A DNA stretch of 37,725 nt from Bacteroidales bacterium (GTDB lineage Bacteria > Bacteroidota > Bacteroidia > Bacteroidales > UBA932), in the NCBI GenBank assembly GCA_035380845.1, contig DAOSXZ010000001.1, forward strand, positions 1-37,725. Direction: 5' to 3'. Shown here in pieces: positions 909-37,661 of this stretch. Made by a program: the position numbers and the translations under genes. Positions within the stretch are counted from its first letter, which is position 1. Each line of letters starts with the position of its first letter. The notes below the pieces were generated by a model, which made no database searches, was not told the DNA's origin, and saw nothing but the letters and a program-made list of their open reading frames with translations.

Positions 909-1669
909 AGCTTATTGTGTTCGTCGCAAAGTTTAGTTATGGATTCGTTCAATTCCGCCAATTCGTCATCGGAAGGCAGTTTGACCTGGTATTTTGTTTT
1001 AAACAACAAGGTGTTTTTGACACCCAAACGAATTTGCCTGAGCGGCAGGATCAGGTATATGCGAATAAAATAGGACAACAGGAACAACAAAAGAATGCTG
1101 CTTGCCACTGCTATGACACCAGGCATCAGGCTTCGGTAAAATCCGTCCTGTATCAATTGCGTGTTCTGATGGAGTAATTCCTGTTCCAGAGAGATCAGAT
1201 CCTGTACGTATTTACGCAGCCTGGAATAAGTAGGATACAGTCTCTGAGAATACCATCCCCTTCTCTGAACGTATTCGTTTTCCTGCCAGACAGACCGGGC
1301 TTCGTTCAGTATTTGCATATAAGCGGCATAAGCGTAAACAATGGAATCGGTCAATGCCATTTCCTGATCAGTTGTCAATGTAGTCCTTGTTGCCTGCAGA
1401 TAATTGTTAAAACGTGCATCATCATATATGGATTCCATTTCCAATAAGGAATCCGTTGTTATTCCAATCTGGCTGAGCAATGCAAAAATATTCTGATCGG
1501 TTACTTCCAGCAATTGGCTGGATATATTGATGTTTTCCACGTTGACTGAAATAACGTCTCCTACGGAACGGCGGATCCTTCCGATTTCAAAGATACTGAC
1601 CAGGCTGGATAAGAAAAGAACAAAGCCTACTACCAGAAAACCCAGATTAATCTTATTGCTTATTCCCAT
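905..1669 (-). CDS. Sensor-like membrane protein: MCP-type four-helix-bundle ectodomain flanked by two TM helices, short HAMP-like tail, no output domain
   Basis: 254 aa, ATG at 1669-1667. TM1 is INLGFLVVGFVLFLSSLVSIF, followed by a ~150 aa helical segment. TM2 is LMPGVIAVASSILLLFLLSYFIRIYLILPL, followed by PLRQIRLGV...DDELAELNESITKL (HAMP-like), then stop. Its stop overlaps the trkH start, and its start overlaps the SDR 3' end by 17 nt. Confidence 0.6.
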   Translation of the reverse strand: MGISNKINLGFLVVGFVLFLSSLVSIFEIGRIRRSVGDVISVNVENINISSQLLEVTDQNIFALLSQIGITTDSLLEMESIYDDARFNNYLQATRTTLTTDQEMALTDSIVYAYAAYMQILNEARSVWQENEYVQRRGWYSQRLYPTYSRLRKYVQDLISLEQELLHQNTQLIQDGFYRSLMPGVIAVASSILLLFLLSYFIRIYLILPLRQIRLGVKNTLLFKTKYQVKLPSDDELAELNESITKLCDEHNKL

Positions 1670-2504
1670 AAGTGTTCAAAGTTATAAAAAAACTCCATAC
1701 GCTGTCCAGAGACTCTTTGGCAGACAGGTAAGAAGGTAATCTTACCTGTTTCTTGTCTTTGAATAATTTCCCGGAGATTCCTTCCACAGAAGCATCCAGC
1801 GCCAGAAATACGGTAGTAGAAGCACCCTTGGGAGCTTGTCTTATAACGGGCCTGAAAAACAAGTCTGTAAGAGGGTCAATCCAATTATGCATTTTAATTA
1901 TGGGTGTATTTACTATCCCGGGATCTACCATATTAACACTAATTCCTTCATCTTTCCATAAAGAGGCCATGCGTATGGAACACAAGGCAAAAGCAAGCTT
2001 GGAACAGGCATAACGTTCAAAACGGTTGAATTTGGGAGATGGCATAGGGAAATAAACCGGGATTCCCCCCTGTCTGATCATTATAGATACGGTATTGATC
2101 ACACGGCTGCCTTTTCCCAACAACGGTTTGATAAGCCATGTAAATGTTGCCGGACCCAGGCAGTTGACCACATTATGCATTTCATATCCTTCGGGGGTAA
2201 TTTCCGGTTTCCATCCCAGCATTCCTGCATTGTTGATCAGAATATCCAGGTGATCCTCTCTGTCTTTTAGAACAAGGGCAGCCCGGCGGACAGAATCCAG
2301 GGATGAAAGATCCATTTCAAGGACGGAGACTGTTTCTGCACCATATTCATCAACCAGGGAACGGCAAAATTGCATACCCTCACTTCCGGGACGACAAGAT
2401 AAAATGACCTTGCAACCGGATTGAATCAATTCATGACTGATAACGCGGCCTAAACCTCCGTTAGCCCCTGTCACAAGGGCTATCTTCCGGTTATTTGAGT
2501 TCAT
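1653..2504 (-). CDS. Short-chain dehydrogenase/reductase (SDR); candidate hydroxysteroid (3-oxo/3-hydroxy bile acid) dehydrogenase by context
   Basis: 283 aa, ATG at 2504-2502. Motifs: Rossmann TGANGGLGR (TGxxxGxG), NNAG, and catalytic YACSK (YxxxK). Its start is overlapped by 14 nt of the upstream OYE gene. Confidence 0.85.
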   Translation of the reverse strand: MNSNNRKIALVTGANGGLGRVISHELIQSGCKVILSCRPGSEGMQFCRSLVDEYGAETVSVLEMDLSSLDSVRRAALVLKDREDHLDILINNAGMLGWKPEITPEGYEMHNVVNCLGPATFTWLIKPLLGKGSRVINTVSIMIRQGGIPVYFPMPSPKFNRFERYACSKLAFALCSIRMASLWKDEGISVNMVDPGIVNTPIIKMHNWIDPLTDLFFRPVIRQAPKGASTTVFLALDASVEGISGKLFKDKKQVRLPSYLSAKESLDSVWSFFITLNTYGNKQ

Positions 2505-3720
2505 TCAGCAATTTTTTGGGAATACCATCCAGATGCTGGTGACATGCCATATCTATACTGTACATCCTGGCAATGCAATAATTGGTATGCTTGCAACTAC
2601 TGGAGAAAGCGCATCCGGGATCTTTCTCTTCCGCTTCTTTCATATGTTTGACAAAGGCTGGATCATTGATCAGGGGTCGCGCCAGTCCAATAAATTCAAA
2701 ACCTCCGTCCAGAGCCTGTTCTATGACAGAACGCGAGAACATACCTCCCAGGCATACCAGCGGTATACGGATGTGCTTCCTGAATATTCGTGCATCTTCC
2801 AGAAAATATCCTTCCTTGAAGGGAACCGGGGGAATCATCCATTTTCCTATCATGCCTACTCCAATCTTTACATAATTCCAGGGCATGTAATACGTCAAAG
2901 TTTTAATGGGCATGGCACCGCGCATAACATACATGGGCGCCCGGCTTACATAACCGCCGCTAAGCACCAGTGCATGCGCTCCGGCTTTTTCCAATAGTGC
3001 GGCCACCTGCAGGGATTCATCCAATTCCATGCCACCCCTGAATCCATCCCGCATATTCATTTTCACCAACACAGCCATTTTTCGCCGGGCTGCCACCTCC
3101 ATTACTTCTTCCATAACCTGAGAAGTAAATCTCAACCGGTTGACGAAACTGCCTCCGTATTCGTCTTTTCTTTTGTTCAGCCAGGTAGACATGAATTGAC
3201 TCAAAAGGTATCCGTGACCGGCGTGAATCTCTACCGCATCAAATCCGGATTCGTATGCCAGTTCTGTAGCCTTTCCAAAATCTTTTACCATATCAAGTAT
3301 TTCGGATTTTTTCATAGCCCTGACAAACGTCGGAGAATACATATTAAATCCGCTGCTTGCCGATACAGGTGTGCAACCGCAAATATTCCGGTGACTCATG
3401 TTGCCGCAATGGCCCATCTGTATGGATGCTGCGGCTCCTTCTTTATGAATACCATCTGTGAGATGCTTTAACCCTGGAACGATTTCAGGACGCATCCACA
3501 ACTGTGTTGGGAAAGAAAGTCCACTCCTGTTAACAGCTGCATAAGCGACTGTAGTCATTCCAATCTCACCCGCTGCAACAGAAGTATGATAGCGGTAAAG
3601 GGCATCTGAAGGTCCGTTAGCTATACACATCCCTTCAAAAGCAGCCGCGCGGATGGTACGGTTGCGTAAAGTAAGAGGGCCTATGGACGATGGTGTGAAT
3701 AATAGAGAATCGTGGATCAT
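2491..3720 (-). CDS. Old-Yellow-Enzyme-family NADH:flavin oxidoreductase (ene-reductase); candidate 3-oxo-delta4-steroid 5beta-reductase by context
   Basis: 409 aa. OYE TIM-barrel signatures: LTLRNRTIRAAAFEG, HKEGAAASIQMGHCG, FDAVEIHAGHGYLLSQFMS, GLARPLINDPAFV. C-terminal four-Cys stretch CAFSSSCKHTNYCIARMYSIDMAC. There is no C-terminal FAD/NAD(P) domain. The ATG at 3720 lies 3 nt after the 5alpha-reductase stop. Confidence 0.85.
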   Translation of the reverse strand: MIHDSLLFTPSSIGPLTLRNRTIRAAAFEGMCIANGPSDALYRYHTSVAAGEIGMTTVAYAAVNRSGLSFPTQLWMRPEIVPGLKHLTDGIHKEGAAASIQMGHCGNMSHRNICGCTPVSASSGFNMYSPTFVRAMKKSEILDMVKDFGKATELAYESGFDAVEIHAGHGYLLSQFMSTWLNKRKDEYGGSFVNRLRFTSQVMEEVMEVAARRKMAVLVKMNMRDGFRGGMELDESLQVAALLEKAGAHALVLSGGYVSRAPMYVMRGAMPIKTLTYYMPWNYVKIGVGMIGKWMIPPVPFKEGYFLEDARIFRKHIRIPLVCLGGMFSRSVIEQALDGGFEFIGLARPLINDPAFVKHMKEAEEKDPGCAFSSSCKHTNYCIARMYSIDMACHQHLDGIPKKLLNELK

Positions 3721-3723
3721 ATT

Positions 3724-4497
3724 TTAATATATAAAAGGGAAAATACGTTTTCGGGGATCCCTTGTCATTTCTGTAGAAAACTCATTTTCATATCTTTTAT
3801 ATATGGCGTGAGCCCTGGGAACCAGGTTGGCAAAAGTCCACAAAAAGAAAACAAATCCGCTCAGGGACCAGGTCAAAACGGCAAAACCCATCCATTCAAT
3901 GATTTCGCCAAAATAATTGGCACATGTTACATACCGGAATAATCCCTTATCCGGTAAATAATGGTTTGTATCTCCTTCATGTCTGAGGTTTCGAATAATT
4001 CCGTCCGAACGGATATTGATCACAAGTCCTGTTATGAACAATGCGGTTCCTGCAAGAAAACGGGGATCTCCCAACCAGGATTCCGTATACATTTCCGGAG
4101 GTGCCAGGAAAAAGATCCATTGACCTTGCATAAATGCGTTCGCCAGATTAAAGACAATACCCATAAGCATGATCAGAACAGGCATCCGACTTTTTCCCTT
4201 AATTAACCACGGAAAAATAAATGCACGCTGAAGATAGTGAGTCTGGAAAAGCAGGAAAAAAACAAAAGGTATAAGTTCCCATTTCCTGGGAGACATAACC
4301 CAAAACCAGCACATGGCAATAAAAACCGGCGCTTCCATGATCATCCACGCCCATTTGTTGGATAAGGTTATCCCCCAGCTTTTGTCAAAAAGAATACCGT
4401 AACCGGCTTTCACATGATACAATGCTATGAACACAACTATTGCAATAGCCGCCATAATCAATAAAAACAGGTGAAAGGTATTCAGGGAAATATTCAT
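3724..4497 (-). CDS. 3-oxo-5-alpha-steroid 4-dehydrogenase (steroid 5alpha-reductase, SRD5A family) integral membrane enzyme
   Basis: 257 aa polytopic membrane protein. The C-terminus GLFRYVTCANYFGEIIEWMGFAVLTWSLSGFVFFLWTFANLVPRAHAIYKRYENEF aligns by eye with the conserved SRD5A1 C-terminal block (..GLFEYVTAANYFGEIMEW.G..L.....). ATG at 4497-4495. Confidence 0.9.
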   Translation of the reverse strand: MNISLNTFHLFLLIMAAIAIVVFIALYHVKAGYGILFDKSWGITLSNKWAWMIMEAPVFIAMCWFWVMSPRKWELIPFVFFLLFQTHYLQRAFIFPWLIKGKSRMPVLIMLMGIVFNLANAFMQGQWIFFLAPPEMYTESWLGDPRFLAGTALFITGLVINIRSDGIIRNLRHEGDTNHYLPDKGLFRYVTCANYFGEIIEWMGFAVLTWSLSGFVFFLWTFANLVPRAHAIYKRYENEFSTEMTRDPRKRIFPFIY

Positions 4498-5543: not shown

Positions 5544-8084
5544 ATGAACCAACGGGTAACCATACTGATACTTGCCATACTTTTCTTCCTTCCCGGAAAA
5601 ACTGCAGGCCAGACAGCTGACACGACCGGCCAGATTTCACGCGACACTATGGAAATCGCGCTGCCTGACTCATTGACTATGATCTATCTGGACAGTTTGC
5701 GTATTCCCTATACCGAGGCCCATCGTGTTCCGACACTTGACTCCATGCTGCGTATCACATCAGATGAAAAAGGATTGTTTTACAAATTAGACAGCCTGGG
5801 GCTTCTTATTCTGGATGAAAAAGGGAATCCTGTGGTAGATTCCCTGAAAAGTTTTTCTGCCAGAACGTTATCCCTGATGTCGTTTATGGATAGCCTGGGT
5901 TTGCCACTCAAAGATACAATACGAATTCCGGTACTTGATTCCGCGGGCAGACAGATTCGGGACACCCTGGGATTCTTTTACCAGACAGACAGTACCGGTT
6001 TGATCAAACTGGACAGCCTGGGATCGTTCCTGGTAGATTCACTGGCAACTTACACCACAAAAGAACTCAGGAAAATGGCCCGCCAAAAAAGAAAGGAGGA
6101 AAAAGCCATAGCAGATTCCATATGGAACAGTACGTTTCATCCACTTGAAACATATGTTATACCGGACACCCTGTTATACAGGAGGGTTATTTCCTGGACT
6201 AATGATGAATATTTTAATAATCTGAAATTTAAGCAGATAGACACCAATATCAATAGCAACTTTCACGATTATGCCTACCTGGAAAAGGACGTGGGAGCTG
6301 TTTCCCTGGGGACTGCAGGATCTCCTGCCCTCCCGTTCAACTTCTTTATCCGGGAGACGAAAGAACGTTTTGATTTCTGGAGCCCCGGTATGTATGAAGC
6401 GTATGACAGGAACACCCTTCCGTTCTACAACACAAAATCGCCTTTTACGGTGATGTCCTATACCGGGACGTTGTTCGCTAATAAGGAAACCGAAGAAATG
6501 AATGTAGGCTTTCTTCACACTCAGAATCTTTCACCTTCAACCAACGTACAGTTTTTTTACCAGAAGAAAGGTACAGCCGGATTATTGGAAAATGAGAGTA
6601 CCAATACAAGGACTTTGGCCGTAACCGCGGATTACCTGGGAAAGAAATACATCGTGCACGGAGGCTACATTCGGAATTCCCTGCAAAAAGGTGAAAACGG
6701 AGGTATTCAGGATGACAGCTTCATACTGGACACCCTGGTAGAAGCTCGTACTATCCCGGTTAATCTTTCCAATGCGTCATCCCTGCTTAAAAGCAGTCAG
6801 CTTTTCATCACCCAGAGTTACGGAATTCCTATCAATCTGTTCAAAAGAGACTCTCTGGACACCGGAGAAGGGACCATGATGATTTTAGGACACTCGGGAG
6901 AATGGACCACAATGACACGCAACTATAATGATGAAATAGGCCTGGCAGACAGGGCCGGACGCGCCTTCTACTACGATCGGTTCTTTATGCATCCGACCCG
7001 TACGGCAGATTCTTTACGAACCATGATCGTGGATAACCGGTTTTTCCTGCGCTTGCAACCATGGTCCAACACGGCTATCGTTTCCAAGATAGAAGGAGGC
7101 GTGGGCTATGAACTCATTTCCAATTATTGCTTTAATCCGGATTTCTATACGGAAGGGACTTCCAACCTATGGCAGAATAATATGTACGTATATGCCGGAG
7201 CCTCGGGTATGTTCAAAAAATATTTCCGGTGGAACGCCCTTGGGAAACTGGACTATGCCGGTTATTATGCAGGAGACGTATCTCTGGATGCCAACGTCCG
7301 TTTTTCTTTTTATCCCATGGAATCCGGGATCCATCTTACAGGCAGATTCCTTTTCACCAGGCAGACACCGGATTGGTATACACAGCATTATTATTCCAAC
7401 CATTATATCTGGAACAATGATTTCCAGAAGACAAACCAAACCAGGATAGAAGCCCGGCTTTCCATACCCGGTTGGAAAACTGAAGCCACATTTTCTTATG
7501 GATTACTGGGAAACCGTATCTATTACGATACACTGGGAACAGTAAGACAGTCAGAAGACCTGGTTAACGTCATGACTGCCACCTTGACTAAGAATTTCAG
7601 TTTTTGGTATGTCAGGCTTGATCACAGACTCTTATTCCAGGTATCTTCCAGGCAAGACATTGTACCGTTACCCACTTTCAGTGCCAACCTGAGGTATTAC
7701 CTGGAAATACCCATCGTTAAAGATGTAATGACAGCACAAATTGGGGCCGATATTACTTTTCACACAGCTTACCATATGGAATCCTATAATCCCGCGCTGG
7801 GTGTATTCCATCTGCAAAACGAAAAGAAATACGGCAACACTCCCTATATAGACGCATTTATAAATATGAAATGGAAACGGGCAACCATTTTTGTAAAATA
7901 TGTCAATGCCGCCCAGGGATGGCCAAATAGTGATTATTTTGCAGCGCCGCATTACATTCGTCCACAACGCGTATTTAAACTGGGAATGACGTGGCCGTTT
8001 TACATTAAACCCGGAAAGACAGCTGCTCAGGCTTCTTCTTCCGAAGGATCTCCCGTGAGAGCAGCAGGAAACACCGCCCGCTGA
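5544..8084 (+). CDS. Large outer-membrane beta-barrel protein (Bacteroidetes 'putative porin'-type) with N-terminal LDSxG repeat region
   Basis: I prefer the ATG at 5544 (MNQRVTILILAILFFLPGKTAGQ signal peptide). A ~130 aa repeat region is followed by ~650 aa rich in alternating aromatic/hydrophilic beta-strand patterns, ending in WPF before a low-complexity tail. The family assignment is by resemblance only. Confidence 0.5.
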   Translation: MNQRVTILILAILFFLPGKTAGQTADTTGQISRDTMEIALPDSLTMIYLDSLRIPYTEAHRVPTLDSMLRITSDEKGLFYKLDSLGLLILDEKGNPVVDSLKSFSARTLSLMSFMDSLGLPLKDTIRIPVLDSAGRQIRDTLGFFYQTDSTGLIKLDSLGSFLVDSLATYTTKELRKMARQKRKEEKAIADSIWNSTFHPLETYVIPDTLLYRRVISWTNDEYFNNLKFKQIDTNINSNFHDYAYLEKDVGAVSLGTAGSPALPFNFFIRETKERFDFWSPGMYEAYDRNTLPFYNTKSPFTVMSYTGTLFANKETEEMNVGFLHTQNLSPSTNVQFFYQKKGTAGLLENESTNTRTLAVTADYLGKKYIVHGGYIRNSLQKGENGGIQDDSFILDTLVEARTIPVNLSNASSLLKSSQLFITQSYGIPINLFKRDSLDTGEGTMMILGHSGEWTTMTRNYNDEIGLADRAGRAFYYDRFFMHPTRTADSLRTMIVDNRFFLRLQPWSNTAIVSKIEGGVGYELISNYCFNPDFYTEGTSNLWQNNMYVYAGASGMFKKYFRWNALGKLDYAGYYAGDVSLDANVRFSFYPMESGIHLTGRFLFTRQTPDWYTQHYYSNHYIWNNDFQKTNQTRIEARLSIPGWKTEATFSYGLLGNRIYYDTLGTVRQSEDLVNVMTATLTKNFSFWYVRLDHRLLFQVSSRQDIVPLPTFSANLRYYLEIPIVKDVMTAQIGADITFHTAYHMESYNPALGVFHLQNEKKYGNTPYIDAFINMKWKRATIFVKYVNAAQGWPNSDYFAAPHYIRPQRVFKLGMTWPFYIKPGKTAAQASSSEGSPVRAAGNTAR

Positions 8085-9064
8085 TGTCCAGAAAAAAATT
8101 TCTCATAGCGCTGCTGGCAGCTTTTGTCATATCGTTCCTGTATAAGGAATACTATTCACGGGTGACGCACTCTTCATCCGATATGAGAACAAAAAGAGAA
8201 ATCATACAGGCACAAAACGATACGCTTAGAAGTACCATATACCTTCCCTCTCACGCCGGGACGCGGGTTGGATATCATTACGAGATCATGAGACGTTTTT
8301 CGCAATCCCATGATCTTTCTTTAAAATACATACCCGCAAACGATACGGTTTCGGTATGGGAGCTGCTTACAGAAGATAAAACAGATATTCTGGCCGTGAA
8401 CATTATTCGTGATCCCATTCCAAAATCTCTGACAGGTAAATTATGCATTACACCAAAAATCACACCATTGGGTGAAGTCTGGGTCATGATGAAAAGCAGG
8501 TGTCCCTGGCATTTGAACCTGGTACACTGGCTCATTTTATTTAGACAAAATCCGCAACATTCCCGATTTCAAAGCCGTTTTCTTCCCTCTTCCCCCAACA
8601 GATGTCCTTACGATTCGTTGCTAAGAGCAGTAAGCAGGCCCCTGGGATGGGACTGGCGTATCCTGAGAGCAGTCATGTACCAGGAATCAAAATACAGGAT
8701 GAATGCCCGGTCAGCTGCAGGTGCTATGGGTTTGATGCAAATGAAAGAATCTACTGCCAGGGATATGAAAGTCAAGGATCTTTATAATCCTGAAGATAAT
8801 GTTAAAGGAGCTGTACGGTATTTTGCATATCTGAAAAGAAATATGCATCTGACGCATTTGCCGGAAGAAGAAGAGATCCATTTTGTGCTGGCTGCATACA
8901 ATGCAGGAATGACTCGTATTCAAAAAGACAGGGAACAGGCTGCCACAGAGGGCAAGAATCCGGATAGCTGGTCAGAAGTGGCTCCTTACACGCCTTCACA
9001 AACTCAAAATTATGTAGAAACAATAAAAAAGAGGTACCTGGACTGGGTTACCTCATCCGAATAG
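8084..9064 (+). CDS. Lytic murein transglycosylase (SLT domain, MltF-like with reduced N-terminal solute-binding-like domain)
   Basis: SLT catalytic block MYQESKYRMNARSAAGAMGLMQM...AYNAG. N-terminal TM anchor. The ATG at 8084 shares one nt with the upstream TGA (TGATG). Confidence 0.8.
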   Translation: MSRKKFLIALLAAFVISFLYKEYYSRVTHSSSDMRTKREIIQAQNDTLRSTIYLPSHAGTRVGYHYEIMRRFSQSHDLSLKYIPANDTVSVWELLTEDKTDILAVNIIRDPIPKSLTGKLCITPKITPLGEVWVMMKSRCPWHLNLVHWLILFRQNPQHSRFQSRFLPSSPNRCPYDSLLRAVSRPLGWDWRILRAVMYQESKYRMNARSAAGAMGLMQMKESTARDMKVKDLYNPEDNVKGAVRYFAYLKRNMHLTHLPEEEEIHFVLAAYNAGMTRIQKDREQAATEGKNPDSWSEVAPYTPSQTQNYVETIKKRYLDWVTSSE

Positions 9065-10292
9065 CTTTGTCCGGACTGATCCGGATAATACTTTTCAAAG
9101 GAAGCATAAGAATGCCCAAAAGTAGTCCCAGCGCAGCTGCATCTATCAATAAAACATGATACCAGGACAGATCTACCGGCACACTTTCCACAAAATAGGT
9201 AGATGGATCCAGGGGTATCAATCCCGTAGTCTTTTGTATGATCAGAAATACCACAGCCAGAATCGTACCTGCTGCAATTCCTTTCAGAGCCACACCTGCC
9301 GCATTGTAAAGAAAACTATTTCTGATACTGCGATCTTTCATGCCAATAGCCTTAAACAATCCTATGGAAGACGTTTTTTCAAACAACAGGATCAGCAACC
9401 CGGACATCATATTGAACCCGGCCACAAGAACCATCAAGGCAAGCAAAATGACCACGTTTATATCCATCAAATCCAGCCAGTCGTAGAGATGCGAATAGAC
9501 CCTTTTCACATTGCGCAAAACAACTCCGTCATCTGTATCTGAACTGTTGGCAATGATAAAATCTTCAATACTCTCCTGCCCGGCTTCAATCCGGTTTTTA
9601 CCTTTTAAAAAGAGTTCCATACCGCTTACCTGGTCATCCTGCCACCCGTTTAATTTTTGAGTGTGTCTAATATCACCAATGATTAAATGATTGTCTATAT
9701 CTTCCAATTGGGCATCATATATTCCTGATACAATAAACCGTCGCATCCTTACATTGTCCCCGATGAAATACATGGTCACCACATCCTGAAGCCCTATCTG
9801 CAGAAGCATTGACAGGCGACGTGATATCAGGATCTCGCTGGAGGAAGCATCCTGAGTGAAAACCGGTATGTTTCCTTCCTGTAGATGTCTTTCAAAGAAA
9901 TCCCAACGGTAATTGGCCCCCACACCTTTCAATGATACGGCCTGTATGGCTTCCCCTGTATTAATAATTCCGTATGACACAGCATACTCTTGAATATGAT
10001 CGACAGCCGGATGATTTTTCAAATTTTCCAGGTACGACAGATTCGTTGACACAGGTATGTCTTCTGTTACAAAGCCGGCACCCGGAGCCTCCATAAGTAT
10101 CTCGCCTGTAAACCCAACCGCGCGCTTTTGAATCTCGTTTCTGAAGCCTCTGACAATAGCAACAGACAGTATCATGGTAAACACACTGACAGCTACACTT
10201 ATTATGGCTATCCGGTTTCCCATGCGGCTTACCCGGCCAGTTGAAGTAGCATCGCCCTTAAGTTTCCCGGCTATATAAACGGCGATATTCAT
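9048..10292 (-). CDS. FtsX/LolC/LolE-family ABC transporter permease
   Basis: 414 aa. An N-terminal TM is followed by a large periplasmic loop and three C-terminal TMs, with the FtsX-type segment LLALMVLVAGFNMMSGLLILLFEKTSSIGLFKAIGM. The 3' end overlaps the convergent transglycosylase by 17 nt. Confidence 0.8.
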   Translation of the reverse strand: MNIAVYIAGKLKGDATSTGRVSRMGNRIAIISVAVSVFTMILSVAIVRGFRNEIQKRAVGFTGEILMEAPGAGFVTEDIPVSTNLSYLENLKNHPAVDHIQEYAVSYGIINTGEAIQAVSLKGVGANYRWDFFERHLQEGNIPVFTQDASSSEILISRRLSMLLQIGLQDVVTMYFIGDNVRMRRFIVSGIYDAQLEDIDNHLIIGDIRHTQKLNGWQDDQVSGMELFLKGKNRIEAGQESIEDFIIANSSDTDDGVVLRNVKRVYSHLYDWLDLMDINVVILLALMVLVAGFNMMSGLLILLFEKTSSIGLFKAIGMKDRSIRNSFLYNAAGVALKGIAAGTILAVVFLIIQKTTGLIPLDPSTYFVESVPVDLSWYHVLLIDAAALGLLLGILMLPLKSIIRISPDKAIRMR

Positions 10293-12710: not shown

Positions 12711-14201
12711 ATGGAAAAAAACATCTCTCGAAGAAATTTCTTACAAAAAAGCGCCATGGCCACAGCCGGTGCTATTGTTGCTTCTTCTCCGCTGATGGCT
12801 AAAGTTCCTCTGGATTCACAGAAGAAAAAGAAAACAGCAGCTACCGACAAGCTCAACATTGCCGGAATAGGTATTGGAGGAAGAGGAGGCGGAGTTATCC
12901 GTGAACTGAGTTCTGAAAACATTGTCGCTTTGTGCGATGTTGACTGGAAATACGCTGCCGGACAATTTCAAACATACCCGAATGCGAAAAAATATAAAGA
13001 TTTTCGCAAATTGTTTGATGAAATGGGGAACAAGATCGATGCCGTTGTTGTTGGTACGGCCGATCATACCCATGCCGTTATCGCCGCACAGGCACTTTCC
13101 ATGGGAAAACATGTTTATTGTGAGAAACCCCTTACACATACCGTATACGAAACCAGATTGCTGACCCGTCTGGCCGCAAAGCATAAAGTAGCAACTCAAA
13201 TGGGAAACCAGGGTGCTTCAGGCGCCGGGGTAAGACAAATATGTGAAGCTATATGGTCCGGCATGATAGGAGAAGTAACCAAAGTGGAAGCCTTTACGGA
13301 CCGACCCATCTGGCCCCAAGGGCTGGAAACTCCCACGGAAGCCCATACCCCTCATCCCGACCTGGACTGGGACCTTTTCATTGGACCTGCCCCCTACCGT
13401 CCTTACAACGAAATCTACCACCCCTGGAATTGGCGCGGATGGTGGGATTTCGGAACCGGTGCCCTGGGAGATATGGCCTGCCATATCCTTCAACCCGTGG
13501 TTAAAGCATTGAATCTGAAATCTCCGGTTGCCGTTCAGGGCAGCTCCACTTCCCTGATGACAGATTGTGCCCCTAACGCACAGATAGCCAAATTTGTTTT
13601 CCCGGCACGTGACAATATGCCCAAAGTAGGTATGCCACGCGTGGAAGTTACCTGGTACGATGGAGGACTCATTCCCGAATATCCGAAAGGATGGCCTGCA
13701 GGACGCAATATGAATGACAGCGGCGGTGCGGTTATTTTCCACGGAACAAAGGACACTCTAATCTGCGGATGTTACGGAGTAAACCCCTGGCTGATCTCTG
13801 GCAAAGAAATACCTACCCCTTCCATGACAAGGGAAGTTCCTGAAAACAATCACTATACGGATTTTATACGTGCCTGCAAGGAAAGTCCTGAAAGCCGGAT
13901 AAAGACTGCTTCTGATTTTTCCGAGGCCGGACCTCTGAATGAAATGGTTGTCATGGGTGTCCTGGCTGTGCGTCTGCAAGGTTTGAACCGTGAACTCCTG
14001 TGGGACGGAGATGCCATGAAATTCACCAACATTTCTCCCAACGACAGCCTTAGAATGAAGGTTAAGGACGGCTTCTCCATTAAAGACGGTCACCCCACCT
14101 TCAACAATGAATATACAGATCCCATCAACGCCCTGGAATTTTCAAACGAATTGATCCGCCATACATACAGGGCCGGTTATTCTTTGCCTGAAATGCCGTA
14201 A
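12711..14201 (+). CDS. Gfo/Idh/MocA-family oxidoreductase with twin-arginine (TAT) signal
   Basis: 496 aa. TAT motif SRRNFLQKSAMATAGAIVA. Rossmann motif NIAGIGIGGRGG. The EKP motif of the family appears in VYCEKPLTH. Confidence 0.85.
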   Translation: MEKNISRRNFLQKSAMATAGAIVASSPLMAKVPLDSQKKKKTAATDKLNIAGIGIGGRGGGVIRELSSENIVALCDVDWKYAAGQFQTYPNAKKYKDFRKLFDEMGNKIDAVVVGTADHTHAVIAAQALSMGKHVYCEKPLTHTVYETRLLTRLAAKHKVATQMGNQGASGAGVRQICEAIWSGMIGEVTKVEAFTDRPIWPQGLETPTEAHTPHPDLDWDLFIGPAPYRPYNEIYHPWNWRGWWDFGTGALGDMACHILQPVVKALNLKSPVAVQGSSTSLMTDCAPNAQIAKFVFPARDNMPKVGMPRVEVTWYDGGLIPEYPKGWPAGRNMNDSGGAVIFHGTKDTLICGCYGVNPWLISGKEIPTPSMTREVPENNHYTDFIRACKESPESRIKTASDFSEAGPLNEMVVMGVLAVRLQGLNRELLWDGDAMKFTNISPNDSLRMKVKDGFSIKDGHPTFNNEYTDPINALEFSNELIRHTYRAGYSLPEMP

Positions 14202-14219
14202 ACTTAAACTCAACATAAT

Positions 14220-14984
14220 ATGAAAAAACTTTTAATAATCCCCATTCTCATGACTGCGTTAATCGCAAGCTCTTGTGCTTCCTGTAATAACAACAAGAAG
14301 GAAGTACAGGAAGAAGACCCTAACGTTGTTATTCTCTTTGACGGAGAAACGTTTGAAGGCTGGCGTGCCTACAACGGCACCGATATTCCCGGAGCATGGA
14401 CCATAGAAGAAGGCGCCATCAAGATCAACGGTTCCGGCCGCGGTGAGGCCGGTGCTGAAAACGGCGGTGACATTGTTTTTGACTGCAAATTCGGAAACTT
14501 TGAACTTACTTTTGAATGGAAAGTAGCAAAAGGCTCCAACTCGGGTATTTTTTACCTGGCACAGGAAGTTCCCGGAGAGCCCATTTACATCTCGGCTCCG
14601 GAATACCAGGTTCTGGACAACGCAAATCATCCCGATGCCATGCTGGGTATAGACGGCAACCGCCAATCTGCTTCCCTTTACGACATGATCCCTGCCAAAC
14701 CGCAGAACTCCAAACCTTTTGGCGAGTGGAACACAGGGAAAATCCTGGTCTATAAAGGCACCGTGGCTCATTTCCAAAACGGAGAACCGGTTCTTGAATA
14801 CCATTTGTGGACTCCCCAATGGCAGGAAATGCTGGACAACAGCAAATTCAGCAAAGAAAAATGGCCTGTCGCTTACGATCTGTTACTGAATTGCGGTGGT
14901 GAAGAAAAAGCAGGATACATTGGTTTGCAGGATCATGGCGATGATGTATGGTTCAGAAACATCAAAGTAAAAATCCTTGACTAA
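14220..14984 (+). CDS. DUF1080 / 3-keto-disaccharide hydrolase family lipoprotein
   Basis: 254 aa. Lipobox LIASSC. Family-typical blocks W.....W.IEEGAI, F.L.FEWK...GSNSGIFY, EYQVLDN, and C-terminal GYIGLQDHGDDVWFRNIKVK. Confidence 0.8.
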   Translation: MKKLLIIPILMTALIASSCASCNNNKKEVQEEDPNVVILFDGETFEGWRAYNGTDIPGAWTIEEGAIKINGSGRGEAGAENGGDIVFDCKFGNFELTFEWKVAKGSNSGIFYLAQEVPGEPIYISAPEYQVLDNANHPDAMLGIDGNRQSASLYDMIPAKPQNSKPFGEWNTGKILVYKGTVAHFQNGEPVLEYHLWTPQWQEMLDNSKFSKEKWPVAYDLLLNCGGEEKAGYIGLQDHGDDVWFRNIKVKILD

Positions 14985-15856
14985 TGGTACGCAATTTTTT
15001 GACAACAATTATGGTGGCAACGGTTTCTGCTTTCAGCCTGGTATCCTGTGCTACAGAACCCGTACAAAAAGAGATCGGTCTTCAATTGTACTCCATCAGG
15101 GAACAGATTAATGAAGATCTTAACACTTCACTGGATGCCGTAGCCGAAGCCGGCTATACATTTGTGGAAATGGCCGGTTACAATGCCGCGGAAGGTACTT
15201 TCTACGGCATGTCAGGCAATGCTTTTACGGAGCTTTGTAATAGCAAAGGACTGGAAGTGATATCCTCACATATTAACGGACCGGATCCGAATGTCACTCC
15301 ATGGGAAGAATGTATGGCCTGGTGGGACAAAGCCATTGCAGATCACCTGTCTACAGGTGTTCTGTACATTGTTCAGCCCTCCATGTGGAAAAGTGCTTAC
15401 GAATCCGTTGAAGGACTTTCCAGGTATTGTGAATTGTTCAATGCAGTTGGTGAAAAATGCAACAACGCAGGCATCCGTTTTGGATACCATAATCATGCAA
15501 ATGAGTTCACGACTGTTTTTGATGATGTGGTCCTGTACGACTATATGCTTCAGAATACAGATCCGGAAAAGGTTTTCTTCCAGATTGATGTATATTGGAG
15601 CCAGGTAGGCGGAGCACCTGCTGTCGAATACCTGGAAAAATATCCCGGAAGGTATGACCTGTGGCACGTTAAAGATGACAAGGAGATTGGCGCTTCCGGA
15701 AAGATCGATTTCCGCGCCATCTATGAAAAAGCAGAAATGTCGGGGCTTAAATATGCCATTGTGGAACAGGAAGCATTTGATTTGGCTCCTTTTGAAAGTA
15801 TTAAAGCTTCATATGACTATTTGAACAATGCGGACTATGTAAACGTTTCGTATTAA
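14984..15856 (+). CDS. Xylose-isomerase-like TIM-barrel (sugar phosphate isomerase/epimerase family) lipoprotein
   Basis: 290 aa. Lipobox SLVSC. IGLQLYSIRE..., GYHNHANEF, and WHVKD/VEQE metal-ligand-type blocks of the AP_endonuc_2 fold. The ATG shares one nt with the upstream TAA (TAATG). Confidence 0.8.
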   Translation: MVRNFLTTIMVATVSAFSLVSCATEPVQKEIGLQLYSIREQINEDLNTSLDAVAEAGYTFVEMAGYNAAEGTFYGMSGNAFTELCNSKGLEVISSHINGPDPNVTPWEECMAWWDKAIADHLSTGVLYIVQPSMWKSAYESVEGLSRYCELFNAVGEKCNNAGIRFGYHNHANEFTTVFDDVVLYDYMLQNTDPEKVFFQIDVYWSQVGGAPAVEYLEKYPGRYDLWHVKDDKEIGASGKIDFRAIYEKAEMSGLKYAIVEQEAFDLAPFESIKASYDYLNNADYVNVSY

Positions 15857-15861
15857 GAAAG

Positions 15862-15897
15862 ATTCTGTGTTACTCTTCTGTGACACAGAATTTTTTT
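15862..15897 (+). terminator. Rho-independent terminator after the three-gene glycoside cluster (overlaps the 3' end of the convergent TPR gene)
   Basis: ATTCTGTGTTAC (15862-15873) pairs with GTGACACAGAAT (15880-15891): 12 bp including one G-U pair, with a 6-nt loop. The stem runs into a T7 tract ending at 15897. It lies 6 nt after the TAA at 15854-15856. Confidence 0.65.
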
Positions 15898-17867
15898 ATG
15901 ACACTGTAAGCATCCTGAATACCCAACTCCCCGGCAGTAGAGATATCCATACACCCCTTTTCTTTCTCCTTCAGGTAGATCTGAATAAGGCCCCGGTTGT
16001 AATAGGCTTCTGCCAGGTACGGATACAACTCCAGTGCTTTGGAATAATTGCCGATAGAGCGGGGAAAATCACCTGATAAACAATAAAGGTTCCCCAGGTT
16101 ATAATATATATGGGCAAAATCCGGGGCCAGAAGGGCTGCTTTTTCCAGATCGTTAATAGCTCCTGAATAGTCGTATTGATGACGGCCCTGTTCCTGGACA
16201 CGTGTTCGTGTAGTCCCGGCCTGGTCCAGGGTGAGGATCTGTACGTTATTTTCCATAGAAGAGATAAAATCTATCATCTCACTCTGCAATGCAGCCCGGT
16301 TGATATAATAAAAAACGTTATCGGGATCTTTTTCTATAGCCCGGTTATAGGATGCCAGGGAAGCATTGAACAATTTGCTCTGGAAATCCAGAATACCCCG
16401 GATGAAGTAAAGATCCGGAGAATCTCCGTCATCCCGGATCAGCTTTTCAACCTGTTCTCTTTGAAATTCAATGCGTTCCGGATCAGTTTCCGGTTCCTGG
16501 CTGAACAAACTGACAGGGATTGTCTGACGCATAGTAAATTTTTCAAGGTCCTCATAATAATACCTTTGTTCAAGCGCTATGGTGTTTTCCGCAGGCCCGG
16601 TCAGCAATTTATAGAGGGGTTTAAGACGTATGTCCACATCCCTGTATTGAAGCAGTTCGTTATTGAAATCTTTTTTTGCAAAGTCGGCATCCAGTGCCAA
16701 AAGACGGTCAAAACGCTGCGTTGTGTCTGCAAAAGCCGAGTATGTAGTATCTCCCAGCCTGGATTTGTAATCGTTGACTTTGTTCTGAGCCACCTGGTAA
16801 TCCAGCTCGGCAGCCGCAAACAGACCGAGTCTGTTCTTGACAAACGAACGATTCATATATGCGTTTGCAAAATCCGGATACAACTCTATAGCTTTGTCAT
16901 AATCCCGCATGGCATCTCTGTAACGTTCCATTTGTATGAACAATGCCGCCCGGTTGTAATAGGCCAATACGTTGTTGGGATTGATGGAAATAACCCGGTC
17001 ATAATCTTCCAGGGCGTTGTTGTAGTCTCCAATCTGTGTTCGTATCAAGGCCCGGTTGTACAAAGTCAGGGCATTCCCCGGATCTTCCTGCAGTACTTTT
17101 TCAAGATCGGCCAGTGCCCCGTTTAAGTCATTCCGGTTATAGCGGATCAGGGCGCGGTTGAAATAAGCGAATGAATTTTCCGGATCCAGAGATAATGCCT
17201 GGTCCAGATCCTCCAGGGCTGCCGGATATTGCTCCTGCATGGCATATACACGCGATCTGCGGATATAGCCTTCCGGATCGAATTTGTTCAGCAATACGGC
17301 GGTATCGTAATCATGCAGTGCTTTTACGGTATCCTTCAGGTACAGGTAACAGGCACCACGGTTCAGGTATGCTTCGCTCACACGTGGTTCGTGACGAATA
17401 AAACGGTTGAAATCTTGCTCCGCCAGTTCAAATTGCTGGGATAACAAGTAGGTAACTCCCCTGCTAAAATAGAGTCCGTTATAGCCGGGACGCAGGTCTA
17501 TGGCTTCCTGCAGGTCTTCCAGGGCCTTTTCGTATTCACCCAGACGTGAATAGGTGATTGCCCTGTAATGGTATGCCATGGTAAATATGGGATGAATGGA
17601 TATGGCCCGGTCAAAATCCGATCGGGCTCCCATGAAATCTCCCAGGTTGTACTTCCCTATCCCTCTGAAAAAAAAAGCTTCATGCAAAGCAGGATCCAGC
17701 TGAATGAGTTTGTTGAAATTATCAATGGCCTGCTGGTACCGTCCTTCGAACAGCAAATGCTGTCCGCGGTAAAAAAACTGCTGTTTATCGTATTGGGCTT
17801 CCGCCTTTCCCGGTAATAACAAAAGGGAAAAAAGAAGAACTATATACAGGCGGTGTTTATATACCAT
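15870..17867 (-). CDS. Secreted tetratricopeptide-repeat (TPR) protein
   Basis: 665 aa. Signal peptide IVLLFSLLLLPGKAEAQ. More than 12 tandem 34-aa TPR units (recurrent A..Y.NRG/A......A..D...A...P). Confidence 0.85.
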   Translation of the reverse strand: MVYKHRLYIVLLFSLLLLPGKAEAQYDKQQFFYRGQHLLFEGRYQQAIDNFNKLIQLDPALHEAFFFRGIGKYNLGDFMGARSDFDRAISIHPIFTMAYHYRAITYSRLGEYEKALEDLQEAIDLRPGYNGLYFSRGVTYLLSQQFELAEQDFNRFIRHEPRVSEAYLNRGACYLYLKDTVKALHDYDTAVLLNKFDPEGYIRRSRVYAMQEQYPAALEDLDQALSLDPENSFAYFNRALIRYNRNDLNGALADLEKVLQEDPGNALTLYNRALIRTQIGDYNNALEDYDRVISINPNNVLAYYNRAALFIQMERYRDAMRDYDKAIELYPDFANAYMNRSFVKNRLGLFAAAELDYQVAQNKVNDYKSRLGDTTYSAFADTTQRFDRLLALDADFAKKDFNNELLQYRDVDIRLKPLYKLLTGPAENTIALEQRYYYEDLEKFTMRQTIPVSLFSQEPETDPERIEFQREQVEKLIRDDGDSPDLYFIRGILDFQSKLFNASLASYNRAIEKDPDNVFYYINRAALQSEMIDFISSMENNVQILTLDQAGTTRTRVQEQGRHQYDYSGAINDLEKAALLAPDFAHIYYNLGNLYCLSGDFPRSIGNYSKALELYPYLAEAYYNRGLIQIYLKEKEKGCMDISTAGELGIQDAYSVIKKFCVTEE

Positions 17868-36407: not shown

Positions 36408-37661
36408 ATGACAAAAGAAACTAAAAAACCGTGGTGGAAACAATTTATGACCGAAGACTGGATCATAGTCATTGCAGCCACCATCATTCTGGTCCTGGCG
36501 GTGATAGTGCCTGCTGTTATGCCCAGAATGCCAAAAACGTTATTTACGGCCAAAGAATGGCTGGATGCAGGGTATATGTTTGTTTTTCTGCTGCTTGTTA
36601 CTTACCTGACATCATTTATTCTTAAAAAACCTCTGAAAGGACTGTTCCTCTCTTTCCTGGCAATCTACCTTCTGGCGCTTCTTTCCAATGTTGTTGCAGC
36701 TATTCCCGCCGTCAAATCCACCGGTTTGGAATCCGTGTTTTTTGCTGTAATCTTTGGCTTGGTCATCAGCAACATAGTAGGAGTGCCAAAATGGCTTAAA
36801 CCGGCTATACAGAGTGAATTCTACATTAAGATAGGTATTATCACACTGGGGTCTACCATCTTGTTCGGAGAAGTCATGAAAGCCGGTGCATACGGCCTGG
36901 CCCAGGCATTGGTAGTAGTTCTTGTTGTCTGGAATTTTGCATTCTGGGTTGCACGAAAAATGAAAGTTGATGACGAAATGGCCACTATGCTGGCCAGTGG
37001 TGTTTCCATTTGCGGAGTGTCTGCCGCCATCGCTACATGTGGTGTGATTAAGGGAAACAACAAAAAATTGTCCACGGTAATCTCACTCGTACTGGTAATC
37101 GCAATTCCTATGATGTACCTGTTACCCTGGCTTTCAGAACTTATGGGATTATCTTCATCGGTTGCAGGAGCCTGGCTGGGCGGGACCATAGATACTACCG
37201 GAGCTGTAGCTGCCGCCGGTACCATGTTGGGAGAGGAAGCCGCTCAGACGGCCATTATTGTGAAATCTTCGCAAAATGTACTGCTGGGTATCGCCGCTTT
37301 CCTGATAGCACTCTACTGGACTTATAAAGGAAAAGAAGGTCAGGAAAAACCTACCGCAAAACTGATTTGGGACCGTTTCCCGAAATTTGTAGTAGGATTT
37401 GTACTGGCTTCTCTGATCTTCAGCATTTTTTTCAGCATAGAAGAAGCCAAAATAGTTGGAAAGATCACCAAGGGATTCAGCACTTCCCTGTTCAGTATTG
37501 CCTTTGTATGCATTGGTCTGGAAACCCGGTTTAAAGAAATTTTCTCTAAGGAAAACCGCCAGCCTCTTAAAGCATTCCTTACAGCACAGGGAGTGAATAT
37601 AGTCTTTACCCTTTTGGTAGCTTACCTCATATTCGGAGTTATTCAGCCTCTGCTTGGATAA
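36408..37661 (+). CDS. YeiH/UPF0324-family inner-membrane transporter (putative sulfate-exporter family)
   Basis: 417 aa, ~10 TM. ASGVSICGVSAAIAT and GAWLGGTIDTTGAVAAAG align by eye with the E. coli YeiH blocks GAGSSICGAAAVLAT and GIYIGSTVHEVAQVVAAG. Confidence 0.75.
   Translation: MTKETKKPWWKQFMTEDWIIVIAATIILVLAVIVPAVMPRMPKTLFTAKEWLDAGYMFVFLLLVTYLTSFILKKPLKGLFLSFLAIYLLALLSNVVAAIPAVKSTGLESVFFAVIFGLVISNIVGVPKWLKPAIQSEFYIKIGIITLGSTILFGEVMKAGAYGLAQALVVVLVVWNFAFWVARKMKVDDEMATMLASGVSICGVSAAIATCGVIKGNNKKLSTVISLVLVIAIPMMYLLPWLSELMGLSSSVAGAWLGGTIDTTGAVAAAGTMLGEEAAQTAIIVKSSQNVLLGIAAFLIALYWTYKGKEGQEKPTAKLIWDRFPKFVVGFVLASLIFSIFFSIEEAKIVGKITKGFSTSLFSIAFVCIGLETRFKEIFSKENRQPLKAFLTAQGVNIVFTLLVAYLIFGVIQPLLG

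Follow-up and report, generated by a model that had tools for sequence, protein, structure and literature searches.

The 37,725-nucleotide (nt) stretch of Bacteroidales bacterium contig DAOSXZ010000001.1 analysed here (the window, taken whole) carries an operon of three co-directional open reading frames (ORFs), ORF1, ORF2 and ORF3, whose products very probably make up an exported pathway of glycoside cleavage that proceeds through oxidation, elimination and hydration (Table 1). The original prediction had described three co-directional genes joined by an 18-nt gap and a TAATG overlap and followed by a strong terminator, and its coordinates proved exact: inspection of the sequence gives 18 nt from the stop codon of ORF1 to the ATG of ORF2, and a 1-nt overlap (TAATG) between ORF2 and ORF3. 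Folding confirmed the terminator as well, since region 15850-15905 reaches -22.8 kcal/mol (z = -5.71) and none of 200 shuffled sequences was as stable; a simple scan for consensus terminators did not list the hairpin at 15856-15897, although folding detects a strong one. Because the stop codon of a convergent 665-amino-acid (aa) TPR gene on the minus strand (15870-15872) sits within the stem, this hairpin probably serves both strands, ending the operon as well as the TPR gene, and the A-tract 5' of the stem together with the U-tract 3' of it fits a bidirectional terminator. At the other end of the operon, a simple promoter scan returned promoter-like matches only at the level of shuffled sequence, and visual inspection of the 66-nt region 5' of ORF1 gave no clear match to a TAnnTTTG promoter of the Bacteroidetes type.

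Table 1. The three genes of the operon and the hairpin that closes it, numbered along the window.
Feature	Position	Strand	Description
ORF1	12711-14201	+	496 aa; Gfo/Idh/MocA glycoside 3-dehydrogenase, predicted to be exported by twin-arginine translocation (TAT); probable BT2158/AL3 orthologue
ORF2	14220-14984	+	254 aa; DUF1080 (PF06439) predicted lipoprotein; probable BT2157/AL2 orthologue
ORF3	14984-15856	+	290 aa; xylose-isomerase-like TIM-barrel predicted lipoprotein; probable BT2156/AL1 orthologue
Intrinsic terminator hairpin	15856-15897 (approx.)		A-tract before stem, 6-nt loop, U7 after; closes the operon

The protein families had been named correctly, and all of them were recovered by Pfam: ORF1 matches GFO_IDH_MocA (1.4e-16) and GFO_IDH_MocA_C2, ORF2 matches 3keto-disac_hyd/DUF1080 (E 1.3e-47), and ORF3 matches AP_endonuc_2, a xylose-isomerase-like TIM barrel (2e-15). 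For each of the three proteins, the top PDB matches are structures from the study of Nasseri et al. (bioRxiv 10.1101/2024.03.25.586180), in which the roles of the corresponding enzymes of an Alistipes sp. (AL) and of Bacteroides thetaiotaomicron (BT) were assigned by nuclear magnetic resonance. The comparison with these characterised enzymes that the original prediction had called for gave, from the alignments, identities of 67.8% for ORF1 to AL3 (8tdh), of 69.7% and 71.0% for ORF2 to BT2157/BT2 (8tda) and AL2 (8v31), and of 43.9% and 43.2% for ORF3 to AL1 (8tcd) and BT1 (8tct), which makes ORF3 the most divergent of the trio. All catalytic and metal-binding residues named by Nasseri et al. 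are kept, six in ORF1, eight in ORF2 and seven in ORF3; the residue lists were taken from the preprint, and offsets between construct and native numbering were fixed by means of sequence motifs before mapping.

With 818.4 bits, ORF1 clears the 750-bit cut-off of the NCBIfam equivalog model NF058561 (BT_2158_fam, "glycoside 3-dehydrogenase") and matches it over its full length (residues 6-496 on profile positions 1-487). The next-best NCBIfam models, among them IolG, levoglucosan dehydrogenase and BT_2159_fam, score only 26-62 bits against cut-offs of 330-650. Its best PDB matches are 8tdf and 8tdh (E ~1e-217), and the residues of AL3 that line the sugar and NAD pockets, Q161, R192, W195, D248, H252 and Y349, correspond to Q167, R198, W201, D254, H258 and Y355 of ORF1, six identical out of six.

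For ORF2, the PDB matches 8v31, 3nmb, 3osd, 8tda/8tde, 8rr2, 9fbe and 4hxc fall between E 1e-107 and 1e-100 (8tda at 1e-104), and 3nmb, 3osd and 4hxc among them are older structural-genomics entries. The eight channel residues of BT2 are all identical: E103, N134, E164, Q166, Y190, K245, Q273 and H275 are E76, N107, E128, Q130, Y154, K209, Q237 and H239 in ORF2. This DUF1080 protein is therefore expected, if the published roles carry over, to be a 3-keto-alpha-glucoside 1,2-lyase and 3-keto-2-hydroxyglucal hydratase, and not the "hydrolase" of the Pfam name that the original prediction had adopted, following the roles given by Nasseri et al. in the preprint. Purified BT2157 has been reported to consume 3-keto-trehalose (Liu et al. 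2021, PMC8121099). A different arrangement of this gene is seen in a related Bacteroides sp. locus (L050, 10975-12661), where two tandem DUF1080 genes, 61% and 64% identical to ORF2, lie between the dehydrogenase and TIM-barrel genes.

The best PDB matches of ORF3 are 8tcd, 8tcr and 8tcs (E 4e-67), followed by 8tct (E 7e-63). In spite of its lower identity, all seven residues are conserved with respect to both AL1 and BT1: H103, H178, H180, D211, W214, H237 and E272 of AL1 are H96, H169, H171, D202, W205, H228 and E263 of ORF3, with H169, D202 and H228 as metal ligands, H96, H171 and W205 as substrate contacts, and E263 as the catalytic residue. The role expected from this correspondence is that of a metal-dependent 3-keto-beta-glucoside 1,2-lyase.

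All three proteins carry putative export signals, as had been predicted. The N-terminus of ORF1, MEKNISRRNFLQK, holds a twin-arginine signal over residues ~1-31 (ISRRNFL … PLMA-K; motif SRRNFL), which passes the TIGR01409 TAT_signal_seq model with 22.4 bits (cut-off 16.7) and scores 16.3 bits with the Pfam TAT_signal model, under its cut-off of 22.7. Lipobox-like motifs are present in ORF2 (…ALIASSC, Cys19) and ORF3 (…SLVSC, Cys22). Species-representative genomes were scanned for relatives of ORF1, which gave at least 595 loci (L001 and so on, each a stretch of a related genome), and the gene-order counts given here are drawn from the best 80 of these. The twin-arginine motif is found in 74 of 80 ORF1 homologues and the lipobox cysteine in 64 of 77 DUF1080 homologues, while the TIM-barrel homologues have mixed signal types across the related loci. 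In Rikenellaceae/Alistipes-type loci (L014, L016, L017 and L024, as well as L018, L025, L038, L043 and L056) the TIM-barrel gene stands upstream of the dehydrogenase gene, and its product starts with a twin-arginine motif of its own (for example MNRRDFLKK), in place of the lipoprotein or Sec signals seen elsewhere; this suggests that in these loci a metal-loaded lyase may be exported folded. A tatC gene lies directly 3' of the cluster in L052 (13454-14233) and L028, and also in L044, L048, L058, L068 and L075, and in L028 tatC and ApbE flavin transferase genes follow the cluster (13438-14400 and 14750-15598). The presence of tatC beside the cluster is consistent with TAT export dedicated to the dehydrogenase.

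Taken together, these data make it very probable that the trio is orthologous to BT2158-BT2157-BT2156 and AL3-AL2-AL1. The original prediction had proposed an oxidation/elimination module of the Nasseri type, and the score of ORF1 with the equivalog model, the PDB matches and the full set of residues bear this out as orthology, which is more than resemblance. The same roles are assigned to ORF1, ORF2 and ORF3 because their signals, gene order and catalytic residues match those of the AL and BT proteins. The AL/BT dehydrogenase is exported by TAT with NAD tightly bound and is re-oxidised by 3-keto sugars, the return of 3-keto-glucose to glucose by the reduced enzyme being thought to close the cycle, and AL4/BT4 (BT2159) is dispensable in vitro (Nasseri et al., bioRxiv 10.1101/2024.03.25.586180). 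By analogy, ORF1 would fold around a tightly bound NAD and leave the cytoplasm via TAT, so that the cycle would run in the periplasm. There it would oxidise the C3 hydroxyl of a gluco- or manno-configured sugar at the non-reducing end, and the resulting 3-keto group would acidify H2 and permit 1,2-elimination of the aglycone or of the next sugar. The elimination would be divided between two enzymes, the metal-dependent ORF3 acting on beta-linked and ORF2 on alpha-linked substrates. ORF2 would then hydrate the 3-keto-2-hydroxyglucal to 3-keto-glucose, which the reduced ORF1 could convert into glucose in a redox-neutral cycle that would need no external cofactor.

The operon can be compared directly with the two characterised systems. 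In B. thetaiotaomicron, BT2156-BT2160 and the paralogous BT4446-BT4449 (Liou et al. 2020; Liu et al. 2021, PMC8121099; Nasseri et al. 2024) share with the window the order dehydrogenase-DUF1080-TIM barrel, and there, too, the dehydrogenase carries a TAT signal and each of its two partner proteins a signal peptide. Unlike BT2156-BT2160, the window has neither a BT2159-type dehydrogenase nor a BT2160-like SusR-family regulator among the ORFs scanned, but BT4446-4449, like the window, is also devoid of a regulator. The two further differ in that ORF2 is without the 9-residue loop of BT2157 and in that the host is an uncultured member of the Bacteroidales and not a Bacteroides. In the Alistipes sp. 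cluster AL1-AL5 (fosmid P1C11; bioRxiv 10.1101/2024.03.25.586180), the trehalose-pocket residues of AL3 and the Co2+ ligands and catalytic Glu of AL1 have their counterparts in the window. The TAT signal of AL3 and the lipoprotein signal of AL2 agree with those predicted for ORF1 and ORF2, whereas AL1 has an ordinary secretion signal and ORF3 a lipobox-like motif; AL4 and AL5 (DUF6377/SusR) were not found in the window. Alistipes genomes such as L052 show the order SusR-BT2159-BT2158-DUF1080-TIM-TatC. None of the differences from the AL and BT systems touches a catalytic residue.

The surroundings of the operon are of a housekeeping character, comprising an FtsX-type permease, a transglutaminase-like protein, a member of the purine/uridine phosphorylase family (PNP), DUF4293, TPR and M28 peptidase proteins, UvrA, RelA/SpoT and UvrB. 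A Pfam scan of most of the larger window ORFs (36408-37661 excluded) found no SusC/D, catabolic glycoside hydrolase, second Gfo protein or SusR regulator, and tblastn searches with BT2159 and SusR homologues from L052 and L050 as queries gave no match within the window, in agreement with the Pfam scans. The earlier remark that no SusC/D pair or glycoside hydrolase lies nearby therefore holds among the window ORFs scanned, and membership of a polysaccharide utilization locus (PUL) was rejected because the scanned neighbours include no SusC/D or catabolic glycoside hydrolase.

The closest relatives of ORF1 are encoded by metagenome-assembled genomes (MAGs) of uncultured Bacteroidales (98%, 97%, 89% and 89% identity), followed at 62-81% by Muribaculaceae, Rikenellaceae/Alistipes, Proteiniphilum, Dysgonomonas and others. 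The isolate names of the relatives, of the form 'AS..', presumably point to MAG sets from anaerobic digesters, and the host lineage within the Bacteroidales is uncultured and probably non-gut. A gut or dietary setting for the substrate, for which the original prediction had named dietary or xenobiotic glycosides, is accordingly unproven, given that the nearest relatives of the host are uncultured Bacteroidales MAGs. In 64 of the 80 related loci the three genes stand side by side, so that their grouping is more than chance, in the order GFO-DUF1080-TIM in 52 and TIM-GFO-DUF1080 in 12, the latter mostly from Rikenellaceae. The commonest layout, as in the window, is a trio with no second dehydrogenase or regulator next to it (29/80), and a BT_2159-family gene is present in nine loci, six of which also have a SusR/DUF6377 regulator. 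These gene-order counts show that the core of the system, conserved across the Bacteroidota, consists of the three exported enzymes without BT2159 or SusR, and that the five-gene operon of Bacteroides and Alistipes is one elaboration of this core.

Other elaborations can be seen among the same loci. In Muribaculaceae-type loci, the main trio is directly preceded by genes for a second, divergent dehydrogenase (26-29% identical to ORF1) and for a further DUF1080 protein (26-31%) (L005, 3837-8126; L007, 115-4390; L011/L012, ~5794-9965; L013, 3797-7962), a pair that looks like a tandem paralogous module. In loci of the Dysgonomonas, Proteiniphilum and Prevotella type, the place of BT2159 upstream of the trio is taken by a 565-aa Gfo/Idh/MocA protein (L028, 8240-9937; homologues in L019, L023, L030, L032, L034, L036, L042, L055, L057 and others), which scores far under the cut-offs of both BT_2158_fam (107 vs 750) and BT_2159_fam (30 vs 650).

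In the four most closely related MAG species (L001-L004), the housekeeping genes on either side of the operon are kept in synteny. In identity to L001, ORF1 (98%) and ORF2 (96%) exceed UvrA (90%), PNP (90%) and FtsX (88%), and in identity to L003, ORF1 (89%) exceeds UvrA (79%) and PNP (72%). That ORF1 and ORF2 are more conserved than the housekeeping flanks points to very strong purifying selection.

Several observations weigh against a simple transfer of the published functions to the window. ORF2 is 9 residues shorter than BT2 (8tda) and 8 residues shorter than AL2 (8v31) at a loop that reads 'KDKDGNDVL' in BT2157 and 'TTKD…KQRM' (8 residues) in 8v31; the gap falls at ORF2 residues ~118-119, between AQEV and EPIYIS, and the closest relatives of ORF2 are also without the loop. 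Since ORF3 is only ~44% identical to the characterised lyases, its preference for anomer or sugar could differ from theirs. The lipoprotein status of ORF2 and ORF3, including cleavage and lipidation, is predicted from motifs only, and neither a regulator nor a transporter nor a BT2159 homologue is adjacent to the trio among the window ORFs scanned.

Two refinements of the orthology can be considered in this light. The trio may represent an ancestral, constitutive "minimal" form of the pathway, a general periplasmic scavenger of small glycosides in non-gut anaerobes, whose substrate range might differ from that of the gut enzymes through the missing loop of ORF2 and the divergence of ORF3. Its basis is the lack of a regulator, transporter, BT2159 homologue or PUL, the syntenic housekeeping site and the conservation above that of the flanks, but we consider it doubtful. 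Still less likely is a specialised system with the same 3-keto lyase chemistry, tuned not to a broad range of glycosides but to another sugar or linkage, such as uronides, 6-modified sugars or environmental oligosaccharides of an anaerobic digester. The 43-44% identity of ORF3 to AL1 and BT1, the missing loop of ORF2, the uncultured Bacteroidales MAGs that are the host's nearest relatives, and the fact that across loci identity varies most for the TIM barrel (30-61% outside the closest relatives) would all agree with such a specialisation, and a related cluster specific for glucuronides has indeed been found, the Gram-positive P2B11 pathway (Nasseri et al., bioRxiv 10.1101/2024.03.25.586180). 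That pathway (Oxido1/2, Iso1/2; 8tdi) shares the logic of a Gfo-family oxidase and TIM-barrel lyases, yet it is without DUF1080, and its enzyme 8tdi resembles ORF1 only distantly (E 3.7e-6). Moreover, all listed substrate contacts of AL3, BT2 and AL1/BT1 are identical in the window, and ORF1 scores above the equivalog cut-off, both of which speak against a specialised system.

The pathways for C-glycoside deglycosylation (DgpA/DgpB-C) and for levoglucosan (LgdA/LgdB) also begin with C3 oxidation by a Gfo/Idh/MocA enzyme, after which a xylose-isomerase-like barrel carries out a metal-dependent elimination, and the original prediction had drawn an analogy with DgpB/C. This shared logic, together with the matches of the Rossmann part of ORF1 to DgpA (7xr9, E 3.5e-8) and to an LgdA-type enzyme (6a3f, E 5e-7), is what would commend either of them. 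Those systems, however, are cytoplasmic, and the likeness is limited to the NAD domain of ORF1 (residues ~66-201). AL1 and BT1 do not cleave 3-keto-C-glycosides, and levoglucosan is no substrate (Nasseri et al., bioRxiv 10.1101/2024.03.25.586180). The analogy with DgpB/C did not hold up, and DgpBC-type cleavage of C-glycosides was rejected, in view of this published inactivity and because no DgpB/C chain was found in the PDB with ORF3 even at E <= 10. The levoglucosan pathway was rejected likewise, the LevoglcsnDh model NF052479 giving 45.3 bits against a cut-off of 650 and levoglucosan being a published non-substrate, so that a pathway of either kind is very improbable.

Least credible of all is an inositol or cyclitol catabolic pair, with an IolG-like dehydrogenase, an IolE-like dehydratase and an accessory DUF1080 protein, a family placement that the original prediction had named as evidence against itself and that was rejected because the weak matches of ORF1 to IolG (TIGR04380, 61.9 bits) and of ORF3 to IolE (TIGR04379, 39.9 bits; IolE structure 3cny, E 0.31) lie far under the cut-offs of 355 and 290, because the proteins match the BT2158/AL family much better, and because the predicted export signals on all three do not fit Iol enzymes, which are cytoplasmic.

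Elsewhere in the window, on the minus strand at 1653-4497, three co-directional genes encode a short-chain dehydrogenase (adh_short), an NADH:flavin oxidoreductase of the Old Yellow Enzyme type (Oxidored_FMN) and a membrane protein of the 3-oxo-5-alpha-steroid 4-dehydrogenase family, and may form a cluster for the reduction of enones or steroid-like compounds.

The operon described here is real and correctly delimited, and its pathway is one already known, now in a new host. In itself this adds little that is new and would not surprise a specialist. It means, however, that the sequence is enough to recognise the recently described non-Koshland, 3-keto-mediated cleavage of glycosides in a Bacteroidales lineage that is uncultured and probably non-gut. 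In annotation, genes labelled DUF1080 or 'sugar phosphate isomerase' that stand beside a BT_2158-family gene should be named as 3-keto-glycoside lyases/hydratases, and the operon helps to gauge the spread of the pathway beyond the human gut.

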